Shown here piece by piece: positions 34,488-46,835 of a stretch of DNA of 64,000 nt; the stretch's first letter is position 1; each line of letters starts with the position of its first letter. A model generated the notes under the pieces. It was not told the DNA's origin. It ran no database searches and was given only the letters and a program-made list of their open reading frames with translations. Origin of the DNA: an uncultured Gemmatimonadales bacterium (lineage in GTDB: Bacteria; Gemmatimonadota; Gemmatimonadetes; Gemmatimonadales; GWC2-71-9); assembly GCA_963821525.1 (NCBI GenBank), contig CAWGED010000008.1, positions 32,001 through 96,000 of the forward strand, read 5' to 3'. The translations under genes were made by a program, and so were the position numbers.

Positions 34488-34584
34488 TGAGAATTGGTAA
34501 TTGAGAATTGGTAATTGATAATTGAAGATTGAAGATTGAAGATTGAAGATTTGCAATTACAAATTACAAATTCCCAATACAAAT
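34486..34584. repeat. Inverted pair of AT-rich period-7 arrays (AATTGAN / CAAATTN)
   Basis: gaattgg taattga .. (aagattg)x4 followed by caattac aaattac aaattcc caatac aaat. Confidence 0.85.
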
Positions 34585-34589
34585 CCCCT

Positions 34590-36930
34590 TCACTCTACAA
34601 TAACCTCCACCTCATCGCTCGCGCGTCCAGCCTCCGCCCGGAACCGGTGGTGGCCCGACACTAGCTCCCAACGTTCCTTTGTCGCGAGCTTGCCGTCAAT
34701 GAACCAGGTCACCCGCGCAAGGGGAGGCGCTCCAGTAGCCCTGAGGGCAATGGTGGCGTACCGCGATTCAACGCCCGGCGGCAGCCGGTAGCGATCCCCG
34801 TTCTGGGGCGAGACGATCTGGAAGGGCGGCTCGACGGCTTGGCGGCTAGTCGGCTCGGCATGAGTGGCATGCTCACCGAAGTCAGCCCAAGAGCCGAGCC
34901 GTCGAGCGGCCGAGCCGCCGGGCCGACTTGCCGCCGAGCCGCCGAGCCGTTCACTCTCCGTTCCCTCCCAATCGGCATACTCCGCAGGCAAGACCAGCAG
35001 ACCATCCCGATGCCAGTCGCACCGCTCTTGAGGCACTACATCGGGCATGAACCACTCGACCATGCCGGGACAATCCTTGGTCGCCAGCATGCCGGAGACC
35101 TTACAGATGCGCACCGCAACCGCTCCGGCATCGGCGGGATGCGCCAATTCGCCTGGCGGGTAACGACGTGCCACCAGCAGGAGTGCGCGATGGAGCAGCG
35201 GTCCCGCACCAGTGACACCGCTCACTCCTTCCATCGGCCGGCCGCTGAAGTTTCCCGCCCAGACCGCGACCGTGAAGTTGGCGGTTGTGCCGACCGCCCA
35301 GTTGTCCGTGAAATGCCGGCTGGTCCCACTCTTCGCGGCGACGCGGAACGGCAAATCGAAAGGTGTGTTGAGTCCGAAGGCCGGTACCCGTGCGACCGGG
35401 TCGCTCAGGATATCGAGCACCAGAGCAGGCCGCCCCCGCGGAAACGAAGCGCCGCTCGGGGCCGCCAAGGTTCGCCGAAGATGTGGGGACGGCACGCCAG
35501 GTATAGGGTCGCCAGACACCACCGTTAGCCAATCCCCGATAGCCATTGGCCAGTTCGAGCAATGTGACATCTCCATTCCCCAACGCGAGTCCCAGTCCGT
35601 AGAAGTCCGCGCTGCGCGACAAGGAACCGAAGCCCGCCTCCTGCAATCCATGCAGCAAGGTTCCGAATCCGATCCGATCCGCAACCTCCACCGCCGGGAC
35701 ATTGTAGGAGCTGCCGAGTGCCTCGCGCACCCGCACCGGGCCGTGATAGATGCGATCGTAGTTCCGGGGATGATATGGCCCGCCCGAGGTCTGATAGGTG
35801 CGGGATATGTCGGCAAGAACAGAAGCCGGGGTGAGTCCGCGATCGAATCCCAGCGCATAGAGAAACGGCTTGAGCGCGGATCCGGGCTGGCGGACATTGA
35901 CCACCATATCTACCTGGCCCGCGGTATCGGCCCAGAAATCAGGAGACCCGACCCAGGCGAGGATCTCTCCGGTCCGGTTGTCCACCACCACCGTGGCCGC
36001 GTGCTTCACGCCGCGGTCTGCGAGCTGCTGCACCGTGTGACGGACTTCGGCTTCCAACTCCGCCTGCAGATCGAGATCGAGTGAAGTCCGCCACTTCCCG
36101 CTGAAGGCGACGCCATCACGCTCGGCCCATTGCAGAACCCGACTCGTAAAGTGCGGCGCCAGGAACCGGTTGGCCGGATCTTCACCGAGCAGGGGCTCGG
36201 CTTCGGCACGAGACGTCTCTTCGACAGTCGCGTAACCTGTAGCCGCAAGCTGCTGCAGGCCGAGTGCGCGGCGCTCGGCTGCTTTCGATGGGGATACCAG
36301 CGGATTCTGTCCCGATGGTGCTCTGGCGAGTGCTGCCAGCAGCGCCGCCTGGCCCAGGCTCACCTGAGAGGCGGAGGCGCCGAAGTAGAGCGCGCTCGCC
36401 GCACTCACTCCGATCGTGCCTTCGCCCAGAGGAACCCGATTCAGATACTGCTCGAGGATCTGTTGCTTGGAGAGGTGGTGCTCGAGCCGCAGCGCCCAGA
36501 TCGCCTGACGAAGCTTCCCGCCCCAGCCGCGATCGATCGGGAGAAGGAGCCGCGCCAGCTGCATCGTGATGGTCGAGGCGCCCGACACCACCCGGCGACG
36601 CCGGAGGTTGTCGCGAAACGCTCGGCCAATCGACCGGGGATCAACCCCCTGGTGTTGATAGAACCGGCGATCCTCGATCGCGATGAACGCACGGAGCAGA
36701 TCGGGATCCATCTGATCCAGCGGCATCCATTGGGTCAGGCTGCCGTCGCCGGCGCGAGTCGAGCGCAGCACTAAATCGTGCCGGTCGGTGATGGTAAGAC
36801 TCTGATGACCGGTGGCGGTCAACAATTGATCGGCCAGCGGCAGTGCGACCCAGAACCCGAGTCCCCCAATCAGGAGCAGCGTCAGTGCCGCGGTCGCAAT
36901 GCACGCGCGACGCACCGCTCTACCGCTCAC
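34590..36930 (-). CDS. pbpC: Penicillin-binding protein 1C (one frameshift near 35435)
   Basis: Transglycosylase EDRRFYQH.GVD, GASTITMQLAR; transpeptidase PGSALKPF, SYN, KSGT; C-terminal IVSPQNG..WFIDG..GHH; directly behind alpha-2-macroglobulin. Confidence 0.95.
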
Positions 36931-39900
36931 TTTCTTTCCACAGTGAACACTCCACCGTCGCTGCGACCGTACACCGCCGGGTTATACATCTCTTCGGCAT
37001 GAGCCGGAGGACGGACGAAGACGCCAGGTGTCGTTGCTCTCGCAACGTAGCTCGCGGTGTAGGTCCCTTTCCACAGCACGGTCGCGAAGTAGACCACCCG
37101 CTCGTCCCGCATTTCCCGGTGGTCGAACGGCGACCACCACCCGCTGTCCCAACTCCCGTAGTACCAGTAGTAGTCACCCTCTCCCTCCGGCGTACCCTCA
37201 CTCCCTTCGTCGTACTCCGTCCCCTCCTGGTCTACCGCGTTGGCTCCCACATAGTCGACCTGTTGTCCGACCCCTGGCCCAGGTATTCCTCCGGCAGTGC
37301 GCAGGCTGAGATCCACCGCCTCGAGTCCCGCTGGCAAGGCATCGTCCAGTACCACGAATTGGCGGTCGCTCGGCACCTTGAGCCGCAGACGCACCCGTAC
37401 CAGGTCGCCTTCCTTGACACTCGTCACCGGCTTGCCGCCATCCAGAGTCTCATACCAGCGCTCGACCTGAATTCCCTCATCCTCCGGATTGACCGGCCGC
37501 TCGCGGGGAACCTCGTGAACGGTGAGGTAGTAGTACAGCGGCGCGCCTTTGCCGGTCGCGGCCAGTGAGAGCGGAACTCTCAGCTTGCCGTCGGAGGTGG
37601 AACGGTCGAGATCGGAGAGTGAAACGCTGGAGTCCCTCACCAGTGCGCCACCGGCCTTGTATCCGAGCACGGTGCGGTTCGCGCTGGTGACCCTGATCTC
37701 CCGCGAAGCTCCGGCGCGGACGTGGCGATCGAAGGCCACGAGCCCGCTGACGACCGCGGCATAGTCCTGAGTGTTCCAGTCATCGAGCAGACCGGCCTTC
37801 CCCTGTTGGACCAGCGTTTCCACCAGAGGACCGATGAGAGCATTGCTTGAATCCACAGCCAGTGTTGCGGTGAGCAGGCGCGCGGTAGGACGGACTCGAC
37901 TGTAGAAGTAGTGGAAGCGCGGCAGGGCCTCATCCGGCATTACCGCGCGGCGTCCTTCAATCCGAACCGTGCGCCAGGTCGGTTCCAGAAGACTGCGCGC
38001 CGCTTTTACCGCCTTGCGGCGAGCCAGAACCTCGGCGAGCCGAGCGCGATCTTCCCATCCGAGCTGCGGTGCATTCCGGAGCAGCTCGTTTTCCGACGCT
38101 ACGTCCGGTTTGCCGAGCCGGCTCAGGTAATCCACCGCCGCGACCTGGTCACTGAGTCTGGCCTGGACCGCCTGGTACCAACCGACCACCGGTGCGCGAA
38201 TCGGCTGGGGATTCTTGAGGTTGTTTCGCAGATACTCGCCAAGCCGTGCGAGCACCGAATCGTCCACTTCCACTCCGGCAGCTCTGGCGTCAAGCAGCGT
38301 GAGACCGGCATAAGCGCTGAGCCAGGGCGTGGTCCAGTTGGTGGCGTTCCAGAAGCCGATTCCACCGTCGGAACGCTGACGCCGCGACAGAATCGCAACC
38401 GCGGTCTCGATCTCCCCCTTCGGATTTCCCTTCAGCAGCTTGAGGCCCGCCTGCTTCTCGGCGCGATAGAGCGCGATGATCGGCTGGGCCGAGCTGGATA
38501 CCTGCTCGCTGCATCCATAGGGATAGACCCGGAGCGCCCACTCGATGCCCTTGATCACTGCGAGTGGGGAGGAGCCCAGGTTCAGTTCCAGGCGAGAGCG
38601 TGCAGGATCGATCTCATCGGGGAGCAGGAACTCGACCTCGGCACTGTCTACCAGCACACCGGTTACGGTCCAGGCACGCGGTCTGAACGAAGGCTTGACC
38701 GGCAGGCGTTGCTGGACCGCATCCGCATCACCGGCCCCGGTGACTTGGAATCGGAAAGTCGAGCTGTCGGCGCCGAGTGGATCAGTGCCGGGCTGGCGGA
38801 AGTCGAAGCGAACTTCGCGTCCGCGACCCGCTTCCAATTTCGCCTGCTGGGAGGCCTTGGATCCGAGCGTGCTTCCTTCTGCCTCCGCCTGAACCGTAAC
38901 TAACGGAGTGCCGCCGGCTCGCTGGTTGACGACGACCCCTGCGGAGAATTGGTCGCCCTCTCGGAGGAAGCGAGGCAAGGCTGGGCGTGCCAGCAGGGGG
39001 CGGGTGACCAGCAGCGGCGATTCGCCGTGACCATAGCGGTCGCCGGCGGTTACCGCGACGGCCATGACACGGAAAGTCGTGAGATTGTCAGGGAGCTTGG
39101 CCTTCGCAACGGCATTTCCGCTGCTGTCGGTCACGACGCTCCCAAGGAAGAATGCCGTGCTCTTGAATCGGGAGCGGAGGATGTCACTCTCGCCCAGACC
39201 GCCGCCGCCACCGGGCGAGCGGCCACCCTTCTCACCCTCGGGGACCTGGGGAGCGACGGTGGTGATGTTGCTCGCGAGCCGAAGCCCGAGTCCCCGCGGT
39301 GAATAGAGAAGATCAATTGGGTCGGGCGTCTGGTACCGCGTCAGGGCCAGCACGCCCTGGTCCACGGCCCACAGCGTCACCTCGGCGCGCTGCCCCCCAG
39401 CCTCCTGGTCCGCGACCTTGAGCCGGACCCGCGCCGTGTCTCCGGGGCGATACTCAGCATGCTCCGGACTCACTTCGAGTCGAAGCCGCTTCACCTCCGG
39501 CGTGACCCGCAGCTCGGCATAGCCGACCCGAATCGTCGGACGGCCCGGATCATCGAGCGGCCCCGGGGGCGCGCTCCGCCCGCGGGCGACCAGCACCGAA
39601 ACGAAGGCGTTGGGAGGATACTTCTCGGTGATCGGGAACTTGAGAGTGGTGGAACCCGCGGTGAGCTTGAGGCGGCGCTGCTCGATGAGCCCTTCCCGCT
39701 CCACGGTCACCCACGCCTCGGCGTCGGTGAACGGGGAGGCAAAGAGCACAGTCGCCGTGTCTCCTACGCTGTAGCGGCTGCGATCGGGAACCAGATCCAT
39801 CTTGAACTGGCTCTCGTCGTTCCACGGTACCCAGTCCTTCCCAGTGGCCCAGCGATAGAAATTGGTGGAGACCGCGCGCCCGCGACTGTCGGTCGCCGTC

Positions 39901-42692
39901 AGGTTCACGATGTAGGTCCCGCCCGCTGAAGGCGTGAAGTCGCAGTTGACCGATTCGGTCGCTGTTGTCACTGCGCAGCGTCCCACCGTGTCTGACACCC
40001 ACTCGCCGTAGACCTCGCTGTATCCACCTCGCTCGCGATGCACTCGATGCCATTCACGCCGGGTGAGCACCGCATCCACTTTCACGCGTGGCACGGGGCG
40101 GCCGTCCGGTCGCACGGCTCGCACGGCGACCTGTTCCCTGGTGCCCGCGCTCCAGAAATAAGCATCGCCCAGCGGTTTCGCAGCGAGGTAGAAGTCGGCG
40201 GGGTGAACGATCACGCTGGTTACAGCCGAGCTGGTTTGCCGATTGACATCGGTGACGGTGGCTTCGAGGGCCGCGCGCGCGGCTCGACCCTTGGGAGGAG
40301 TCTCGAGCGGAATCCGTACTACTGCGCGGCCGGAGGGATCCAGAGTGTCGGTCCCCTGTGCCGTGACTTGAACCGTGCTGCGGGGTTCATAGTCCTCGTA
40401 CCACCAACCGTTGTCGCCGACGAAGTAGCCTTCGGTTCCGGGAATGTTCAGTTCCCACGATTCGAGCGAGGTCTGACGCGCGATCCAGGAGAGTGCGGCG
40501 CGACCCATCGGCGCCCCGAACAGGTATCGGGCTTCGATCTTCGCCGTGAGCGTGTCGCCGGGGAGACGGGGCGCACTGTCGGCGTTCACATCCACCAGGA
40601 ATTCGGGAGGTCGATACTCCGCGACCCGATACGCCGTGCGAGCCAGGTCCGACCACTGCCCCCCTCGGCGAATCTGGACTCGAACCTCGTACGAGCCGAG
40701 GGCCAGGCCGGCGGGGAGCGTCAGAGTCTGATCGCTGGTCCCGAAGGGAGAAAGCGAGACGGTTTTTTCCTTGAGGCTACCACCTTCGCGATCGGCAAAG
40801 ATCCACTTGAGGCTGTCGCCTCGCGCTGGTACGGCTAGTTGGCCCAGCGGCCCGGTGCGAACGATTGCCTTGGCGTAGAGCGGCTCACCGGGCCGGTAGA
40901 TCCCTCGCTCGGTGAAGACGGCTGCAGCCGCGGGGAGACGGTCCTGCCCCCAGGCGCTCCCGACATTGAATCGCCAGGGACTCAGGTCCGGATCATACTG
41001 GCTGATGCTGGTGATCGCGCGATCGGTGCCGAGGGTCGCGACCACGTAGCCCTCGAAGCTGGTGTATCCCTCGGTCGTGCTGTCGGGCTTGAACGCCGGG
41101 AAGGTGGCAACGCCGTCGGGGCCGGATCGCACGGTCGCCTTACGCACCCCCTTTGCGTCATACAAGGCGACGGTTGCCCCGGCCTTCGGCTTCCCGTCCG
41201 CGATTCCCGTCACCCACGCGACCCCACCGGTGAGCCCGATGCGGGCGTGAAGGCCAAGGTCAGTCACCTGCACGATCGCAATCGGCATGTTGGCGCGATA
41301 GGTGCTGTCGAGTCGCTGGCTGGTCACCCGCAAGACCTGTAGCGTTGTCGCGCCGGCGCGCCCCGCGCTCGCGGGCTGCAGCTTCACGCCAAAGATCCTG
41401 ACCTTATCCCTCTCCCCCGTCACGGGCACCTTGCGCTTCACCGCACGCGCCATGACTCGCGCCATGGTACTGTCGTCCCGATCCCAGCGGTTGTACTGGA
41501 GAACCTTCGATTCGAGCGTAATTGGAACGGCGGCGGTCTCGACGACGAGCGTGTCCACATTCACGTACTTGACTGCCAGGGTGCGAAAACCATTTCGCTC
41601 CACTGTAAGGCGACCGTACTCATACTCGACAAGCGGAGCGAAGCCCGTCGTCTGCAACCCCGAGGCCGGGTTGCCAGTGAGTCGCTGGCCGAATATGTCA
41701 CGCATCGCCGTGTCCGCGACAACGGCGTATCCGGTGTTCGGCGTGAGGGTGGTCTCCAGGTACCAGGTGGGAGACTCGTCCGTGGTGTCGGGAATTGTGA
41801 ACGGCACCGCGGGCAGGAGTTGAATGCGACGCTGAACTTCGCTGCCCCTGACCGGGGTGGTGAAGTTCACCCGGACGCCGCCGGTGGGGCAGAACGGGCC
41901 GCCGCTGCACAGCGCCGAATCCATTCTGAAGGGGCCGTAGGTGTAGAATCGCCAACGGAGAAACGGCTTGGTCGCCTCGGGATCCACTACCGACGGCACC
42001 ACCAACTCGCCGGCGCAGTTATAAGGCAGCGCGCTTTCGGGCGTGAAGGTCACCACCCGTCGCAGAGGATCCGTCGCGCGGTTCCGGTCCCATGCTCCGG
42101 CCTCTCGATACTGCCAGGGATCCTTGTCGTTGATTGTCCGCTGCCCGGTGATCTTGAGCCGGACGACTCCTGCCGTCTGACAAGCCTTGTCGAACTCCAG
42201 GTAGGCGAGGTCTCGCGGGTTCGATACCTCGAGCTCGGAGCTGAAGACGACGTCGAACGTAGCTTGGGGGCCGAGGAACCGCGGGTGCTCCTCCGCGCTC
42301 ACCGGCAGCCCGCCGATCGCGGCAGGCCCGCTCACCTCGAAACTGAACTGGAACGGCTGGGCCAACCGGCTTCCATCCATCGCCTCGAAGCGATCGGCAA
42401 CTGTCACCTTGTAGCTGCTGCCCGGCTTGAGAGGCTTGGCCGGTACGAGGCGGAGTGTGACAGGATCCCGCCACTCCAACTTCCCTTCAATGGTCGGTTC
42501 AGTCCGGAAGATCGAAGCGGCATCCACCGTGCGGTCGAGCGATCCAGCCACCGGACGATCGAACGTCACCGTGATTTGCGCGGTTGGCGTCGCCTCTCCC
42601 ATCGGCGAGTAGCGCAGGACCTGGAGGTTCGAGGGTGGAGCAACAGCCACCGCGGCCAGGACCACCACGGAGAGCAGTCGGGGTGACAGCAT
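36927..42692 (-). CDS. Bacterial alpha-2-macroglobulin, 1921 aa
   Basis: FTERGIYRPGE, AEYRPPEF, AVDQGVL, LPDNLTTFRVMA, thioester YPYGCSEQ, DALPAGLE, AEEMYNP. Confidence 0.96.
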   Translation of the reverse strand: MLSPRLLSVVVLAAVAVAPPSNLQVLRYSPMGEATPTAQITVTFDRPVAGSLDRTVDAASIFRTEPTIEGKLEWRDPVTLRLVPAKPLKPGSSYKVTVADRFEAMDGSRLAQPFQFSFEVSGPAAIGGLPVSAEEHPRFLGPQATFDVVFSSELEVSNPRDLAYLEFDKACQTAGVVRLKITGQRTINDKDPWQYREAGAWDRNRATDPLRRVVTFTPESALPYNCAGELVVPSVVDPEATKPFLRWRFYTYGPFRMDSALCSGGPFCPTGGVRVNFTTPVRGSEVQRRIQLLPAVPFTIPDTTDESPTWYLETTLTPNTGYAVVADTAMRDIFGQRLTGNPASGLQTTGFAPLVEYEYGRLTVERNGFRTLAVKYVNVDTLVVETAAVPITLESKVLQYNRWDRDDSTMARVMARAVKRKVPVTGERDKVRIFGVKLQPASAGRAGATTLQVLRVTSQRLDSTYRANMPIAIVQVTDLGLHARIGLTGGVAWVTGIADGKPKAGATVALYDAKGVRKATVRSGPDGVATFPAFKPDSTTEGYTSFEGYVVATLGTDRAITSISQYDPDLSPWRFNVGSAWGQDRLPAAAAVFTERGIYRPGEPLYAKAIVRTGPLGQLAVPARGDSLKWIFADREGGSLKEKTVSLSPFGTSDQTLTLPAGLALGSYEVRVQIRRGGQWSDLARTAYRVAEYRPPEFLVDVNADSAPRLPGDTLTAKIEARYLFGAPMGRAALSWIARQTSLESWELNIPGTEGYFVGDNGWWYEDYEPRSTVQVTAQGTDTLDPSGRAVVRIPLETPPKGRAARAALEATVTDVNRQTSSAVTSVIVHPADFYLAAKPLGDAYFWSAGTREQVAVRAVRPDGRPVPRVKVDAVLTRREWHRVHRERGGYSEVYGEWVSDTVGRCAVTTATESVNCDFTPSAGGTYIVNLTATDSRGRAVSTNFYRWATGKDWVPWNDESQFKMDLVPDRSRYSVGDTATVLFASPFTDAEAWVTVEREGLIEQRRLKLTAGSTTLKFPITEKYPPNAFVSVLVARGRSAPPGPLDDPGRPTIRVGYAELRVTPEVKRLRLEVSPEHAEYRPGDTARVRLKVADQEAGGQRAEVTLWAVDQGVLALTRYQTPDPIDLLYSPRGLGLRLASNITTVAPQVPEGEKGGRSPGGGGGLGESDILRSRFKSTAFFLGSVVTDSSGNAVAKAKLPDNLTTFRVMAVAVTAGDRYGHGESPLLVTRPLLARPALPRFLREGDQFSAGVVVNQRAGGTPLVTVQAEAEGSTLGSKASQQAKLEAGRGREVRFDFRQPGTDPLGADSSTFRFQVTGAGDADAVQQRLPVKPSFRPRAWTVTGVLVDSAEVEFLLPDEIDPARSRLELNLGSSPLAVIKGIEWALRVYPYGCSEQVSSSAQPIIALYRAEKQAGLKLLKGNPKGEIETAVAILSRRQRSDGGIGFWNATNWTTPWLSAYAGLTLLDARAAGVEVDDSVLARLGEYLRNNLKNPQPIRAPVVGWYQAVQARLSDQVAAVDYLSRLGKPDVASENELLRNAPQLGWEDRARLAEVLARRKAVKAARSLLEPTWRTVRIEGRRAVMPDEALPRFHYFYSRVRPTARLLTATLAVDSSNALIGPLVETLVQQGKAGLLDDWNTQDYAAVVSGLVAFDRHVRAGASREIRVTSANRTVLGYKAGGALVRDSSVSLSDLDRSTSDGKLRVPLSLAATGKGAPLYYYLTVHEVPRERPVNPEDEGIQVERWYETLDGGKPVTSVKEGDLVRVRLRLKVPSDRQFVVLDDALPAGLEAVDLSLRTAGGIPGPGVGQQVDYVGANAVDQEGTEYDEGSEGTPEGEGDYYWYYGSWDSGWWSPFDHREMRDERVVYFATVLWKGTYTASYVARATTPGVFVRPPAHAEEMYNPAVYGRSDGGVFTVERK

Positions 42693-42786
42693 GGGGGAGA
42701 GCCTTTTCCGGCGAGGATGTTCGCCGGAAGATTGCTCTCCCTTCTCGAAGGGTCAATGAGGGTTCTGCGCAGTGTAGGAGGGGCGC

Positions 42787-43350
42787 CTACCAGATCTCCA
42801 CGACCCACCCGTAGTCCTCAACCTGCTGCTTTTCCGGGCGCTGGCCGCCGGCAGGGAGCACAAGCTCGATGCTATGAGTGGCTGTCACGTAGAGCTTCCG
42901 CAACGCCTCCCCAAAATCCTGAGGGCAATCCCCGCTCAATGAGGCCACTGTGGTCGAGTCGGGGGACCACCGTAGCTCCACCAGGTTTCCGTCCCTCCTG
43001 TCAGACGGGCCCAGCACGGTTCCTTCAGCCATCACCGTACCGGATCCGGTAAGTGTGGCCGAGCAGGCGTCGGCAACCGAGCCGTGCGCGCCACAAAACC
43101 GAATGATGGTCTGGCGGTTAAGCTCGCCACGGTAGCGTCCGGAGCTCACCCAGTGCAGGCTGCCGCTCAGGGCCTCCTCCCCGCCGTTGACACACTCAGG
43201 TGAAAGGCGCAGTTCGGGCCAGGCACTCGTCAGCCGCAGATGATAGAGCGTCTCGACCGGCGCATCGGCCCGGGCGAGAAGTGCTCCCTGAGCTGGTAGG
43301 GGAGAAGTGACGATAGCGGAAGCGAGCAGGAACAGCAGACGGACACGCAT
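42787..43350 (-). CDS. Hypothetical secreted protein with four Cys
   Basis: GGAG RBS; signal peptide MRVRLLFLLASAIVTSPLPAQ; intact ORF. Confidence 0.75.
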   Translation of the reverse strand: MRVRLLFLLASAIVTSPLPAQGALLARADAPVETLYHLRLTSAWPELRLSPECVNGGEEALSGSLHWVSSGRYRGELNRQTIIRFCGAHGSVADACSATLTGSGTVMAEGTVLGPSDRRDGNLVELRWSPDSTTVASLSGDCPQDFGEALRKLYVTATHSIELVLPAGGQRPEKQQVEDYGWVVEIW

Positions 43351-43380: not shown

Positions 43381-43396
43381 GTCAGATCCCGTGCCC
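43381..43396 (-). promoter_or_regulatory. Putative sigma54 -24/-12 promoter
   Basis: GGGCACGGGATCTGAC versus TGGCACGNNNNTTGC; GG-N10-GA instead of GG-N10-GC; about 30 nt before the ATG at 43350. Confidence 0.5.
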
Positions 43397-43498
43397 GGGG
43401 CGACAGGTCCCATTCGCCGCAGCATTCAAGTAGAGATGGATCAGGGGTTTGAGAGGCCAGACCGAAGATCTGGCCATTGCCGCCAGACATCAGGGAAG

Positions 43499-43545
43499 CC
43501 GACAATTATGTCGGGTCTACGCCGGTGAGGCGACAATTTCGTCAG
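43499..43545. promoter_or_regulatory. Tandem palindromic enhancer-like sites
   Basis: CCGACAATTATGTCGG (43499-43514) and GCGACAATTTCGTCAG (43530-43545), 31 bp apart. Confidence 0.6.
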
Positions 43546-45098
43546 GTGGGGGGAACCGAGGCGATGCCCAGCCGGCGCATCTTGTAGCGGAGAATCCGGT
43601 CGGTGGTCTGGAGCAGCCTGGCCGCCTGGGCCTGATTCCCCCGGGCGGTCTTTAGTGCGTCCTGAATAAGATCGCGCTCCAGCGCCGCCACCGCACCCGC
43701 CAGCGTGCCGTCCGCCGCGGTGCCGGAAGCCTCGGCAGTCTGAAGGGTCGGCGGAAGGTGTCGCCCGTGAATGGCCTGCGCGTCGCACACCACCACGGCC
43801 CGCTCGATGATGTTCTCCAGCTCCCGAACATTGCCGGGCCAATGGTAGCCCATGAGCATGTCGATGGCCGCGGTGGTGATCCGCCGGACCGACTTATGGT
43901 GCAGACGGGCGAACTTGGTCACGAAGTGGTCCGCCAGCAGCAGGATGTCCGGTTTCCGTTCCCGCAGCGGCGGTATGAAGATCGGAAAGACGTTCAGCCG
44001 GTAATAGAGGTCCTCCCGAAACACCCGATCGGCAATCGCCTTCTCCAGATCACGATTGGTCGCGGTGACTACCCGCACGTCCACCGCCAACGTGGTCGTG
44101 CCGCCGAGTCGCTCGAACTCCCGCTCCTGCAGGACCCGGAGCAGCTTGACCTGAGTCGACGGTGGCAGCTCTCCGATCTCGTCCAGGAACAGGGTTCCTC
44201 CATGGGCCAGCTCAAAGCGACCCTTTCTTCGGCTCAACGCGCCGGTAAACGCCCCCCGTTCGTGCCCGAAAAGCTCCGATTCAATCAGCGTCTCTGGTAG
44301 CGCGGCGCAGTTGACCTTGATGAAGGGCCCACTCGCCCGTGAGGAGTTGTAGTGAATCGCGTGGGCGATCAGCTCCTTACCAGTGCCCGATTCACCTCGC
44401 AGGAGTACCGTTGTGGTCGCCGGGGCAACCAGGGTGATCTGCGCGCACACGTCACGCATCTCGGCACTGGTCCCGATCAGTCCCGAGAAATCGTAGCGTT
44501 CCTTCAGCTCCTGACGGAGGTGGAGATTCTCCTCACGAAGCGCGACCCGCTCCTGGTCGGCCGGTCTCGTCGTTTTGAGCGCCAGGGCGATGAGCGAGCT
44601 CACTACGTGGAGATACTTGAGCACCCGGTCCAGGTCCCGCCCCGACGCGGAGGGAACGTCCACCGAAAGCGCGCCCACTGGCCGGTGATCGAGCAGAATG
44701 GGGACGCAGATGAACGCGGTGGCCGGATCGTTCTGCCGTCGCGCCGCCCGGTGCAGGAACCGCGGCTCCCGGTTCACGTCGGGCACCACGATCGCCTTCC
44801 CGCTGGCGGCGACCCGCCCCGTGATTCCCTCTCCCAACCGATAGCGGGTCTGCTGACCGGTCGCGTCGAGGCCGAAGGAGGCTTCGATGTACAACTCGTC
44901 GGAGCCTTCGTCGACCAGGGTGACCGAACTGCGGGGAACCCCATGGTAGTGCGCCAGAATCCGCAGCCCGGCGGACAATGCTTCACCCAGGCTGCGGGAG
45001 CCCGACAAGGCCTGGCTGACGTCGAACAACGTCGCCAGCTCCAGCCCTTCGCTTGGAGGTGAACTTTGCCTTTCCGGAATTGTCGGCGACAGAACCAT
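43542..45098 (-). CDS. NifA-like sigma54-dependent activator (GAF-AAA+-Fis HTH)
   Basis: [80 protein letters not shown]. Confidence 0.95.
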
Positions 45099-45114
45099 TT
45101 GTAATGCTCCCCAG

Positions 45115-45149
45115 CAAAAGAAACGGCCCGCTCATTGGGAGCGGGCCGT
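45115..45149 (-). terminator. Intrinsic terminator (attenuator 3:4 stem)
   Basis: ACGGCCCGCTC-CCAAT-GAGCGGGCCGT then TTCTTTT on the minus strand, 17 nt before the activator ATG. Confidence 0.85.
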
Positions 45150-45171
45150 CGGATTTCGGATCACGACAGAC

Positions 45172-45240
45172 TCACCCGCCCGTGTTAATCACGTGCGCGT
45201 TGTGATTGGAATTGGTCCGGCAGGTGAGTGAAATCGTCAT
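45172..45240 (-). CDS. Putative attenuator leader peptide MTISLTCRTNSNHNAHVINTGG (22 aa)
   Basis: ATG 45240 to TGA 45172, read by hand (below the ORF-track cutoff); overlaps alternative RNA stems and precedes a terminator. Confidence 0.65.
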   Translation of the reverse strand: MTISLTCRTNSNHNAHVINTGG

Positions 45241-45247
45241 GCAACGC

Positions 45248-45275
45248 AAGGTAACCGGCTCCTCAAGGACGTCAA
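45248..45275 (-). promoter_or_regulatory. Sigma70-type promoter of the leader peptide (leaderless)
   Basis: TTGACG-N16-TACCTT-N7-ATG. Confidence 0.6.
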
Positions 45276-45300
45276 ATCACAAGGGCGTAACAGAGACGGA

Positions 45301-46281
45301 TCAGTCGCTTGCCGTTGCCCGTGGCGCGACACCGCTCCCGGCGGTCACCGCCTTGGCCGACGCACGAGCTCGGCTCGCCACGAGTTCCTTGCCGGTAATG
45401 ATCAGAATGACCGCGGCCACAATGACCATCGAGGCCACCAGCGTACGACCGTTCAATTGTTCTCCTGCGATAGCCCAGCCGAGGAACACTGCCACGACCG
45501 GATTGACGTAGCCGGCGGTGGACACCTTGGAAGGCGTCGTGATTCGCAGTAGCCAGGCAAAAGCGGTGAAGGCCACCAGCGACCCGAACAGGGTCAGATA
45601 GCCGAAGGCGATCCATGACTTGGCGGTTATGGCACTCAGGTTGAGCTGCGCCCAGTCTCCGTTAACGACGCTCGCAAGGAACAGCCAGGCTCCCCCGGCC
45701 AGCATCTGGATGCCAGATGCGAGTGCCACACTCTCCGGCAGCTTCGCGTCGCGGCTCAGCACCGAGCCGCTGGCCCAGGTGAGAGTCGAAAACAAGAGAA
45801 GCCCGATGGCCGCCGCATTCACTGGCCCCGAAGCCTGCCCGGGCAGCACCAGCAGGGCGACGCCGCCGAATCCCAGTGCGATGCCGGCCAACACGACAGG
45901 GCTGGGCCTCGTGCCACCCGGACGGAGCCATTCGAGAAGTGCCGTCCACACCGACACCATCGCCACGATGAGGGCTGCCAGCCCCGAGGGCATTCCCTTG
46001 TCCTCGACCCAGGCGACAGCACCGTTTCCGACCAGGAAGAACAACGCTCCGAGCAAGACTGCCCATTTCCAGTGAGTGGCGGTCGGCCGCGGGCTCCCTG
46101 TGAGGCGGGCATAGATGTAGAGCGCTGCACCCGCCAGGACGAACCGGGAGCCGGCCATGATGAACGGCGGCATGCTCTGGATCGCCAGGGCGATACCGAG
46201 GTAGGTCGAGCCCCAGATCAGGTAGATGGCCGCGAAGGCCGCGATCATCTGCCAGCGCGGAGCCGAGGCGTGGTCGGTCAC
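45301..46281 (-). CDS. EamA/DMT-family transporter (YedA-like)
   Basis: FAAIYLIWGSTYLGI, PPFIMAGSRF, PSGLAALIVA, YLTLFGSLVAF, YVNPVVAVFLGW..GE; GTGA overlap with the Lrp gene. Confidence 0.93.
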   Translation of the reverse strand: MTDHASAPRWQMIAAFAAIYLIWGSTYLGIALAIQSMPPFIMAGSRFVLAGAALYIYARLTGSPRPTATHWKWAVLLGALFFLVGNGAVAWVEDKGMPSGLAALIVAMVSVWTALLEWLRPGGTRPSPVVLAGIALGFGGVALLVLPGQASGPVNAAAIGLLLFSTLTWASGSVLSRDAKLPESVALASGIQMLAGGAWLFLASVVNGDWAQLNLSAITAKSWIAFGYLTLFGSLVAFTAFAWLLRITTPSKVSTAGYVNPVVAVFLGWAIAGEQLNGRTLVASMVIVAAVILIITGKELVASRARASAKAVTAGSGVAPRATASD

Positions 46282-46751
46282 GCGCCGGCTCCATTGGTGT
46301 GATTCAGCGGAATTCGCGAGCTGTCCTTCACCGTCGAGAGGACGATGGTCGTCCGGGTGTTGCGAACCGCCTTGAGCCGGCCGAATCGCTCGCGGAGCAA
46401 CTCTCCCAGCGCGTCGGTGTCCGGGACTCGGACCTTCACGAGGTAGCAATCCTCGCCGGCGACGTGGTGCACTTCCTGTACTTCGGGGAACTTGGCGATG
46501 GACTGCCCTACGCTGGCCGAGCCGACTCGCTCCTCGGTTCTGACCAGGATGAAGGCGGTGAGCCCGAAGCCGACGGCGTGGGCATCCAGCCGGGCTTCGT
46601 ACCCGGTGATGACATTGCGCGCTTCGAGCTTCCGGATGCGGTCCAGGATGGCGGAGGGGGCCATGTCCAGCTCCCGGGCGATGTCCGCGTTGGAGATACG
46701 GGCGTTGCCCTGGAGCAGGTCGAGAATGCGGATATCAGTCGTGTCGAGCAT
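46278..46751 (-). CDS. Lrp/AsnC-family transcriptional regulator
   Basis: LDTTDIRILDLLQGNARISNADIAREL..RIRKLE..VITGY; EVHHVAGEDCYLVKV..TRTTIVL. Confidence 0.95.
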   Translation of the reverse strand: MLDTTDIRILDLLQGNARISNADIARELDMAPSAILDRIRKLEARNVITGYEARLDAHAVGFGLTAFILVRTEERVGSASVGQSIAKFPEVQEVHHVAGEDCYLVKVRVPDTDALGELLRERFGRLKAVRNTRTTIVLSTVKDSSRIPLNHTNGAGA

Positions 46752-46835
46752 GGTCTTGGACTCCCATCCAAATCCAACATAATTCTTCCAATCATACCGG
46801 TCAATAACGAATCGTCGGTGAAATGGCATGTTTTC

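Follow-up and report, generated by a model that had tools for sequence, protein, structure and literature searches.

A putative asparagine-coded leader-peptide attenuator, predicted to be leaderless, upstream of a sigma54 activator gene in Gemmatimonadota

To our knowledge, leader-peptide attenuation is known almost only from the amino-acid operons of Proteobacteria, with relatives in Actinobacteria. The classical proteobacterial attenuators (trpL, hisL, thrL, pheL, leuL and ilv) combine a short leader open reading frame (ORF), whose stop codon lies at or next to the second of four pairing segments, with mutually exclusive 1:2, 2:3 and 3:4 pairings and an intrinsic terminator just before the regulated gene; in E. 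coli trpL a Trp-Trp pair is followed by three codons and the stop. The Salmonella leaders of mgtA (mgtL) and mgtCBR (mgtP and mgtM) carry proline codons in Shine-Dalgarno-led ORFs, are partly Rho-dependent and precede transport or virulence genes, while TnaC and SpeFL pair a conserved peptide with a small-molecule ligand and act through Rho. In mycobacteria, leaderless short ORFs with polycysteine tracts have been proposed to work as attenuators in which stalling at the codons of one amino acid remodels the RNA and switches on the next gene, by acting, according to the abstract of that report, on the ribosome-binding site of this gene (Canestrari et al., 10.1101/834739). Here we describe an element that resembles the classical attenuators in its layout and is found in a 64,000-nucleotide stretch of DNA from an uncultured Gemmatimonadales bacterium (contig CAWGED010000008.1, positions 32,001 to 96,000; hereafter the window, to which coordinates refer unless a contig or locus is named), where it precedes a gene for a sigma54-dependent activator (43542..45098, minus strand). 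We judge it very probable that the element controls the activator gene as a ribosome-mediated transcription attenuator, and the supply of Asn-tRNA is the likeliest signal, for which we see about an even chance.

The elements of the leader can be read off the minus strand, and the promoter boxes, short ORF, pairing segments, hairpins and terminator of the original prediction, together with their coordinates, all proved correct in every detail. The -35 box TTGACG (45270..45275, minus strand) is separated by 16 nucleotides (nt; 45275-45270 to 45253-45248) from the -10 box TACCTT (45248..45253, minus strand), and 7 nt further on lies the ATG (45240) of an upstream ORF (uORF; 45172..45240, minus strand) of 22 codons plus TGA (45174-45172) that specifies MTISLTCRTNSNHNAHVINTGG. 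Asparagine is encoded at codons 10 (AAT), 12 (AAT), 14 (AAC) and 19 (AAC); by a binomial estimate against a background of 2.1%, the chance of four asparagines in 21 codons is about 1e-3. Segment 1, ACTCACCTGCC (RNA ACUCACCUGCC; 45219..45229, minus strand), covers codons 4-8 and forms the 5' arm of the protector. Segment 2, GGCGGGTGAGT (45180-45170, minus strand; RNA GGGCGGGUGAGU, 45170..45181), overlaps the uORF stop and can pair with either segment 1 or segment 3. The complementarity to segment 1 extends over 11 base pairs (bp) and encloses an inner hairpin, AAUCAC/GUGAUU, which is part of the minimum-energy fold (45187..45207, arms 45207-45202 and 45192-45187, minus strand). The antiterminator is formed by GGGCGGGT (RNA GGGCGGGU, 45181-45174) and GCCCGCTC (RNA GCCCGCUC, 45146-45139), with two G-U pairs; the latter sequence is segment 3 (45146-45139, minus strand), which lies within the 5' arm of the terminator. 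Between segments 2 and 3 a spacer hairpin is predicted (45146..45169, minus strand), the 3' arm of which overlaps the terminator base. The terminator scan places the intrinsic terminator itself at 45116..45150 (minus strand), with the stem GACGGCCCGCUC/GAGCGGGCCGUU of 12 pairs, nine of them G-C (45150-45122), a CCAAU loop and a U tract. Between the end of the T tract (45116) and the activator ATG (45098), a gap of 17 nt holds a Shine-Dalgarno-like GGGGAG (45107..45112, minus strand; from the sequence reading), 8 nt before the ATG and outside the leader stems.

The minimum-energy fold of the 202-nt leader consists of the 1:2 stem, the inner hairpin and the terminator (-75.3 kcal/mol; z-score -2.88, with two of 200 shuffles folding equally well). 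Taken separately, the 1:2 duplex has an energy of -23.3 kcal/mol, reached by four of 200 shuffles, and the 2:3 duplex one of -18.6 kcal/mol, reached by two of 200. A scan against Rfam at permissive thresholds gave only chance-level matches for the leader, the best being Thr_leader (RF00506) at 17.4 bits against a gathering threshold of 55 (E = 5), and no other Rfam leader family matched.

With the N-terminal GAF part of the activator as the query, orthologs were found in 28 of the 401 genomes sampled from the phylum, with 12 of 15 in genus g13, 10 of 24 in genus g33, two of four in g44 and three of 70 in family f7. Orthologs that are 62-69% identical show the same leader layout in other Gemmatimonadota genera. 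The complete unit of promoter, uORF and terminator stands upstream of all 12 g13 orthologs, of two of the ten in g33, and at two loci of the genome under study, namely that in the window (contig C8) and its 97%-identical copy on contig C7, which are the only two places in this genome where this terminator sequence occurs. A terminator of this type was not seen in g44, f7 or the six remaining g33 loci, one of which is cut by the contig end. Two further g33 loci (L129 in G190 and L130 in G158) have the same terminator, GGCCCGCUC/GAGCGGGCC, at a greater distance, 144-248 nt before the conserved part of the activator, along with a longer and different upstream ORF, possibly Shine-Dalgarno-led, and an N-terminally extended activator frame. 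The two g44 loci (L116 and L118) lack a terminator; in these, TTGACA, a 17-nt spacer and TAGGCT precede a 15-codon uORF (MASRSPPAIPHRGDP or MAPRSLPATPARGDA) whose stop overlaps the activator start (ATGA or GTGA), an arrangement that suggests translational coupling instead of attenuation. Beyond these, we took the best 80 relatives each from species genomes and from metagenome contigs; the GCCCGCTC-type terminator was present at three of 79 species-genome loci and 11 of 74 metagenome loci examined, the carriers being those most similar to the query; none of the orthologs from Acidobacteriota and Myxococcota among these loci (about 60-65% identical) had it. The near-identical loci in public collections are labelled as Gemmatimonadales metagenome-assembled genomes (MAGs).

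Altogether we collected 26 leader variants, six from the same genus (including two further genomes of that genus) and 20 from other Gemmatimonadota lineages, and in these the layout recurs, which supports the original assignment to the trp/his/thr type of attenuator: the short ORF, the terminator and the antiterminator are found again in the orthologs. All 26 have TTGAC, a 16-17-nt spacer, TAnnnT and a start codon after 5-7 nt, this codon being ATG in 25 and GTG in one. The uORF spans 17-28 codons in all variants, and 21-22 in 20 of them. The terminator is likewise universal among the 26, and its stem core GCCCGCTC (RNA GCCCGCUC)/GAGCGGGC is nearly invariant. It is on this conservation, with every aligned leader showing TTGAC 16-17 nt away from the -10 box, that the promoter call rests, because TACCTT fails the -10 rule of our sigma70 promoter scan, which returned no site. 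Since the start codon follows the -10 box so closely in every variant, we predict that the uORF is translated from a leaderless mRNA: under standard promoter geometry the transcript would start at or next to the AUG, leaving no room for a Shine-Dalgarno sequence. A published table (PMC10783764) gives the figure 22 for Gemmatimonadetes, which probably stands for a low share of Shine-Dalgarno-led genes. At the 16 leader-bearing loci that were tabulated, the activator starts 26-31 nt past the terminator, which leaves no room for a separate activator promoter.

When all lineages were aligned with MAFFT, neither the uORFs nor segment 2 stayed in register; hence, support for the pairings was taken from per-sequence duplex energies compared with shuffles in place of one consensus structure. 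The antiterminator duplex, in which the stop-codon region pairs with the 5' arm of the terminator, reaches -15 to -24 kcal/mol in 24 of the 26 variants and is usually matched by 0-7% of shuffles (the exception, G120, by 12%), while the two g33 leaders have a weak 2:3 duplex of -8.6 kcal/mol. It begins 8 nt before the stop in the leaders of the same genus; L151 and g33 have it at the stop itself (0 nt), and L147, L148 and the g13-type leaders 3 to 6 nt further on, so that a terminating ribosome would always cover this segment. Complementarity is maintained in the face of sequence change. In the g13 type the antiterminator is GGAGCG-N-GGCC with GGCC-CGCUCC, and the bulged N varies between U, C and A; in L148, segments 2, 3 and 4 have changed together (GAGUGGGC/GCCCACUC/GAGUGGGC), a three-way compensated change. 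Within the six variants of the genus, including L141 and L142, segment 2 is invariant. Between lineages the sequences of segments 1 and 2 differ completely yet stay complementary, as in ACUCACCUGCC/GGCGGGUGAGU in the window and GUGCCUCGCUCCA/UGGAGCGAGGCAC in G016, where the protector is a stem of 14-16 bp; another sequence again serves in G144, G375 and G413. The protector is strong (-23 to -36 kcal/mol) in the window leader and these four genomes, and it is also strong in G206. In the 14 g13-type leaders, RNAalifold predicts a local hairpin that joins the 5' part of segment 2 to UGC-GG and to the final codons of the uORF (GUUCCG), and this hairpin may take the role of the protector there. A lack of uORF or stem conservation in the orthologs, which had been named as grounds for refuting the prediction, is not what we see: the uORF, the antiterminator at the stop codon and the terminator are kept across the 26 variants, with stems that differ in sequence and remain complementary.

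The uORFs are distinguished by their asparagine codons. In 16 representative uORFs (340 residues), with the long ORFs of the genome as background, asparagine accounts for 50 residues (14.7%, against 2.1%), a 6.9-fold enrichment, and it is the only residue enriched in every lineage. The AAY triplets are nearly always in frame (50 of 51; AAT 38 of 38, AAC 12 of 13), and the 601 nt that separate stop codons from terminators contain only five. Of the leader asparagine codons, 76% are AAT, compared with 32% genome-wide, so that the codon rarer in the genome is the one preferred. At least one asparagine is present in all 26 peptides and at least two in 24; their placement varies from lineage to lineage, which implies that asparagine codons arose in frame several times independently. 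Among the six variants of the genus, Asn10 and Asn14 are invariant, Asn12 is kept in five and Asn19 is lysine in two, while in the g13-type leaders Asn or Asn-Asn stands 3-4 codons ahead of the stop and about 18 nt upstream of segment 2. Threonine with isoleucine, or histidine, had been put forward as alternative signals; we tried these and dropped them, with threonine at 1.5-fold, histidine at 1.8-fold and isoleucine at 0.4-fold of background and none consistent across lineages. A reading of the peptide as a precursor of a ribosomally synthesized and post-translationally modified peptide, or as a carrier of N-glycosylation sequons, was also discarded on the basis of the sequence: there is no N-x-S/T sequon, and no recognisable modification enzyme among the neighbours scanned.

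To judge the placement of these codons, we assumed the standard ribosome footprint, which extends about 15 nt upstream and 12-13 nt downstream of the first A-site base. By this estimate a ribosome stalled at Asn10 hides almost the whole of segment 1 (nt 12-22 of the transcript) while segment 2 (nt 60-71) stays free, one at Asn12 covers part of segment 1, one at Asn14 leaves segment 1 exposed, and one at Asn19 or at the stop codon covers segment 2. The earlier claim that stalling anywhere in codons 10-14 would mask segment 1 thus stands for codon 10 and partly for codon 12, and fails for codon 14. In a truncated-RNA model, cut before segment 4, the pairing probability of segment 3 is 0.6-0.9 with the A site at codons 2-12 and 0.2 without a ribosome or with one at the stop; this model allows segments 1 and 2 to pair around the ribosome, which is physically doubtful at codons 13-16. 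Within this estimate and model, Asn10 and Asn12 in the window leader, and Asn18/19 in the g13 type, fit the geometry of control codons.

We accordingly propose a mechanism in which RNA polymerase would begin on or beside the AUG, and the leaderless 5' end would then be loaded with a 70S ribosome. With ample Asn-tRNA the ribosome would reach the stop and cover segment 2, so that the 3:4 terminator forms and the transcript ends at about 125 nt; without translation the 1:2 stem would sequester segment 2, with the same termination as the result. Upon a stall at Asn10 or Asn12, segment 1 would be covered and segment 2 free to pair with segment 3 before segment 4 is transcribed, pre-empting the terminator. 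Read-through would then yield an activator mRNA with its own GGGGAG ribosome-binding site, and the activator would switch on a sigma54-type promoter just downstream, and thereby a secreted-protein gene, an alpha-2-macroglobulin gene and pbpC. That the leader gates the sigma54 activator in this way, by the speed at which Asn codons are read on a leaderless 22-codon uORF, is a proposal on which our own estimate is evenly balanced.

A second leader in the same genome offers a comparison. We scanned the 4.3-Mb assembly for -35/-10 pairs with a start codon 5-8 nt on that opens an ORF of 8-40 codons, itself followed by a strong terminator, and obtained three matches: the two copies of the asparagine leader and a candidate on another contig (C19:1064461-1064613, equivalent to L232:162-314, outside the window). 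The latter has TTGACA, a 17-nt spacer, TAGACT and an ATG after 5 nt; its uORF MIGHLAFFGFTGTGAARVAFGGVSAR (beginning MIGHLAFFGFTG) contains four phenylalanines, and its terminator is GCCCCGCCGG-CAAT-CCGGCGGGGC followed by a T tract. It precedes the genes for prephenate dehydratase (pheA, with PDT and ACT domains) and 3-deoxy-D-arabino-heptulosonate 7-phosphate (DAHP) synthase. The organism hence appears to use leaders of this leaderless design in the classical way, with a Phe-rich leader before Phe-pathway genes as the classical model predicts, and by analogy this supports reading the Asn-rich leader as a sensor of asparagine.

Several observations weigh against an asparagine-sensing attenuator. 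The case for the attenuator is one of sequence comparison and folding, and the 26 variants are related, so that the counts overstate their independence. The 1:2 protector originally proposed is strong in the window leader and in some lineages and does not extend to all, being no better than shuffles in about half of the variants. When the window leader is folded to equilibrium with ribosome masks, the terminator wins at every position (P of about 1.0). We set this model aside, as attenuation is kinetic and the model predicts the terminator in every state; with the terminator always winning at equilibrium, antitermination must be kinetic, as in the classical attenuators. Only 3-4 asparagine codons are available, and they do not follow one another; the g33 leaders carry a single one, and codon 12 of the C7 copy specifies aspartate. 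The asparagine codons also lie in unpaired loops, where A/U-rich sequence is to be expected anyway. The conserved C-terminus of the g13 type, NCRGNRFR, can equally be explained by the RNA hairpin that sequesters segment 2, which would make codon conservation in part a matter of the RNA. Other residues are enriched too: cysteine 8-fold, tryptophan 2.5-fold, and arginine and histidine 1.8-fold each. On the metabolic side, asparaginyl-tRNA synthetase (AsnRS) scores above the cut-off in five of five genomes and several AsnB-type synthetases are present, with no special tRNA-dependent asparagine pathway; the idea that glutamine-dependent transamidation makes the Asn codons a gauge of nitrogen was rejected on the same AsnRS result. 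The genes at and beyond the leader encode the activator, the secreted protein, alpha-2-macroglobulin and PbpC, none of which makes or charges asparagine, and no link to asparagine is evident in the likely targets. Finally, read-in from the EamA-family transporter gene upstream is possible.

Of the alternatives, the one that keeps the attenuator and changes only its input is a response to general slowing of the ribosome, be it by antibiotics, global starvation or a scarcity of several rare amino acids (Asn, Cys and Trp), since any stall before about codons 15-19 leaves segment 2 free. We regard this as possible, though with a clearly lower probability than asparagine sensing. The truncated-RNA model favours 2:3 beyond the Asn codons, at the majority of A-site positions over the first two thirds of the uORF; the enrichment extends to Cys and Trp, whose codons mostly keep to the frame (TGC 21 of 25, TGG 11 of 15); and alpha-2-macroglobulin and PbpC, as likely targets, suggest envelope defence more than asparagine metabolism. 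However, general slowing leaves unexplained the 7-fold enrichment of asparagine, the preference for AAU and the asparagine 3-4 codons before the stop in the g13 type; the cysteine enrichment may be explained by UGC within paired stems (CCUGCC in the window leader, UGC-GG in the g13 type), and the Phe-rich leader before pheA argues for leaders specific to an amino acid. A nascent regulatory peptide with the motif C-[RW]-x-N, arresting the ribosome on a small molecule in the manner of TnaC or SpeFL and thereby setting the RNA fold, appears unlikely to us. The motif does occur in the leaders of the genus (C7-R/W8-x-N10) and in the g13 type (C16-R/W17-x-N19), where the changes at Gly18, Asn19 and Arg22 are synonymous, but the G206 and g33 leaders lack it, the six variants of the genus have non-synonymous changes at codons 5, 8, 9, 12, 13, 15, 17, 18 and 19, and the g13 conservation fits the RNA hairpin equally well, with the variable bases falling in bulges and loops.

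The two remaining alternatives dissociate the element from the activator, and we consider both highly improbable. One of these is that the hairpin is a plain terminator of the EamA gene, with the uORF, promoter boxes and pairings incidental and the activator expressed by leaky read-through. The element does lie in the EamA 3' region, and EamA is upstream in the window, in the g13 genomes and at metagenome loci L147 and L151. Moreover, contigs from RNA libraries run from EamA into the leader. For these we compared contigs from four RNA runs of four studies, among 21 sequencing runs available as assembled contigs, in small shares; they cover EamA, the leader and the activator start, bridging the EamA 3' end and the leader (45176-45388 and 45093-45441) as well as the terminator and the activator start (45059-45209), although such contigs cannot show transcript ends, strand or level, may include DNA carry-over, and mean nothing for the parts that they leave uncovered. 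Against this, an EamA terminator 150 nt past the stop needs neither a promoter, nor a fixed spacing from -10 box to AUG, nor frame-locked asparagine, nor a compensated antiterminator. Moreover, the g33 genome G143 still has the leader where the nearest recognisable upstream gene is not EamA but a divergent flavin adenine dinucleotide (FAD) amine oxidase, and g44, without this leader, has a different promoter and the overlapping 15-codon uORF; from these two observations the leader is assigned, by gene context, to the activator gene. The other, equally remote to our mind, is that the terminated RNA of about 125 nt, or the 22-residue peptide, is itself the functional product, a trans-acting small RNA or micropeptide whose position before the activator is secondary. 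The unit is self-contained, with a promoter and a terminator, and terminated attenuator RNAs can act in trans, an example being rnTrpL in Sinorhizobium (PMC7968998). This would nonetheless leave the position 26-31 nt before the activator, without space for a separate promoter, to be accounted for; the peptide sequence is not conserved between lineages, and a trans-acting product would be compatible with attenuation rather than a replacement for it.

The attenuator thus stays our preferred reading, with the activator gene as its target. This gene encodes a 518-residue enhancer-binding protein in which a domain search detects GAF, Sigma54_activat, AAA_lid_14 and HTH_8. It was originally described as NifA-like, which is apt for the architecture only, because its score with the NifA equivalog TIGR01817 (514.5 bits) is below the cut-off of 528.85 and nifH was above the cut-off in none of the five genomes searched, including that under study; rpoN was found in all five. 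The EamA-family transporter gene lies upstream (45301..46449, minus strand, as the longest ORF; the true start is probably later), and a gene for an Lrp/AsnC-family regulator (46278-46829, minus strand) overlaps this longest EamA ORF (45301-46449). The order Lrp, EamA, leader and activator is kept in the g13 genomes.

Directly past the activator stop, within 43381-43544 (minus strand), are one imperfect and one perfect ACA-N4-TGT palindrome. One, CCGACATAATTGTCGG (43499..43514, minus strand), just past the stop, is a predicted binding site of the activator, and the first palindrome is kept in this position in C7, G120 and G075. About 100 nt beyond is a putative sigma54-like -24/-12 element, GGGCACGGGATCTGAC (43381..43396, minus strand), with a non-canonical -12 part, 30 nt before an ATG at 43350; it does not match the strict sigma54 pattern, and the GGCACGGGA-N2-TG element is conserved in C7, G075 and G144. 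Matches to the strict pattern in the window number 19 against 19.3 expected, and none is informative. The ATG at 43350 begins a gene for a secreted protein without a family match, for which a search of the ESM Atlas returned only unnamed clusters with scores below 0.9; it is followed by the gene for alpha-2-macroglobulin (1921 residues, 36927-42692) and pbpC, and these three are the likely targets of the activator. In Acidobacteriota, the orthologs have the same type of palindrome with canonical sigma54 promoters downstream, which precede the genes for a glutamine synthetase in L066 and a major facilitator superfamily (MFS) transporter in L042.

In the window, pbpC (34590-36930, minus strand) is seemingly split into two overlapping ORFs, of which that of 609 residues corresponds to positions 9-459 of the PBP_1c model and that of 435 residues to positions 461-693, suggesting a frameshift or an assembly error. 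The C7 contig (C7:1-25982, about 26 kb) is collinear with, and inverted relative to, C8:48060-82241 (window 16060-50241) at 89-97% identity and has the second copy of leader and activator, but lacks the 8.2-kb segment (window 34524-42787) with alpha-2-macroglobulin and the larger part of pbpC. Either this is a segmental duplication, or the MAG contains DNA binned from a second strain.

In the literature we found no Asn-codon leader peptide or Asn-responsive attenuator, no leader peptide before a sigma54 enhancer-binding protein and, in work on leaderless genes in Gemmatimonadetes, nothing on such an element; most subscription journals were outside this search, so that a prior description is possible. 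The mechanism, leader-peptide attenuation, is itself known, and what is new is a version predicted to be leaderless, coded by asparagine and gating a regulator. If the proposal is right, leader-peptide attenuation extends, in a leaderless form, to the little-studied soil phylum Gemmatimonadota, asparagine is added to the sensed amino acids with the first Asn-responsive leader peptide, and an enhancer-binding protein is for the first time placed under such control. A ribosome-based sensor would then sit above a transcription factor, and sigma54 would serve to amplify one tRNA-charging signal to the scale of an entire regulon. We suggest, only tentatively and as something we hold to be doubtful, that Gemmatimonadota thereby wire the status of aminoacyl-tRNA(Asn) into a sigma54 regulon—the uORF as the sensor, the GAF activator as the relay and an envelope-defence operon as the output. 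Together with the Phe leader before pheA, the element would be part of a phylum-wide set of leaderless attenuators. The 26 natural variants with their compensated stems, and the Phe leader as an internal control, form a comparative data set for this question.

Set beside the known systems, the element shares its architecture with the classical attenuators, and the position of asparagine 3-4 codons before the stop in the g13 type reproduces the geometry of trpL. It differs from them in that the uORF is predicted to be leaderless, without a Shine-Dalgarno sequence, that the asparagine codons are scattered instead of forming a run, and that the regulated gene specifies a transcription activator in place of a biosynthetic operon. 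With mgtL, mgtP and mgtM it shares the principle that the speed of leader translation decides on transcription into genes that do not make the amino acid concerned, although none of those leaders gates an enhancer-binding protein. Like TnaC and SpeFL, it has a short uORF in which ribosome occupancy near the end would control downstream transcription; in contrast to these, it has an intrinsic terminator and a peptide without conservation across lineages. The mycobacterial polycysteine system, the closest among the described systems that our search found, has in common with it a leaderless short ORF as the first cistron and the use of codons for a single amino acid, whereas the Gemmatimonadota element combines an intrinsic terminator with an antiterminator, has asparagine codons that do not form a run, and precedes a sigma54 activator in another phylum.

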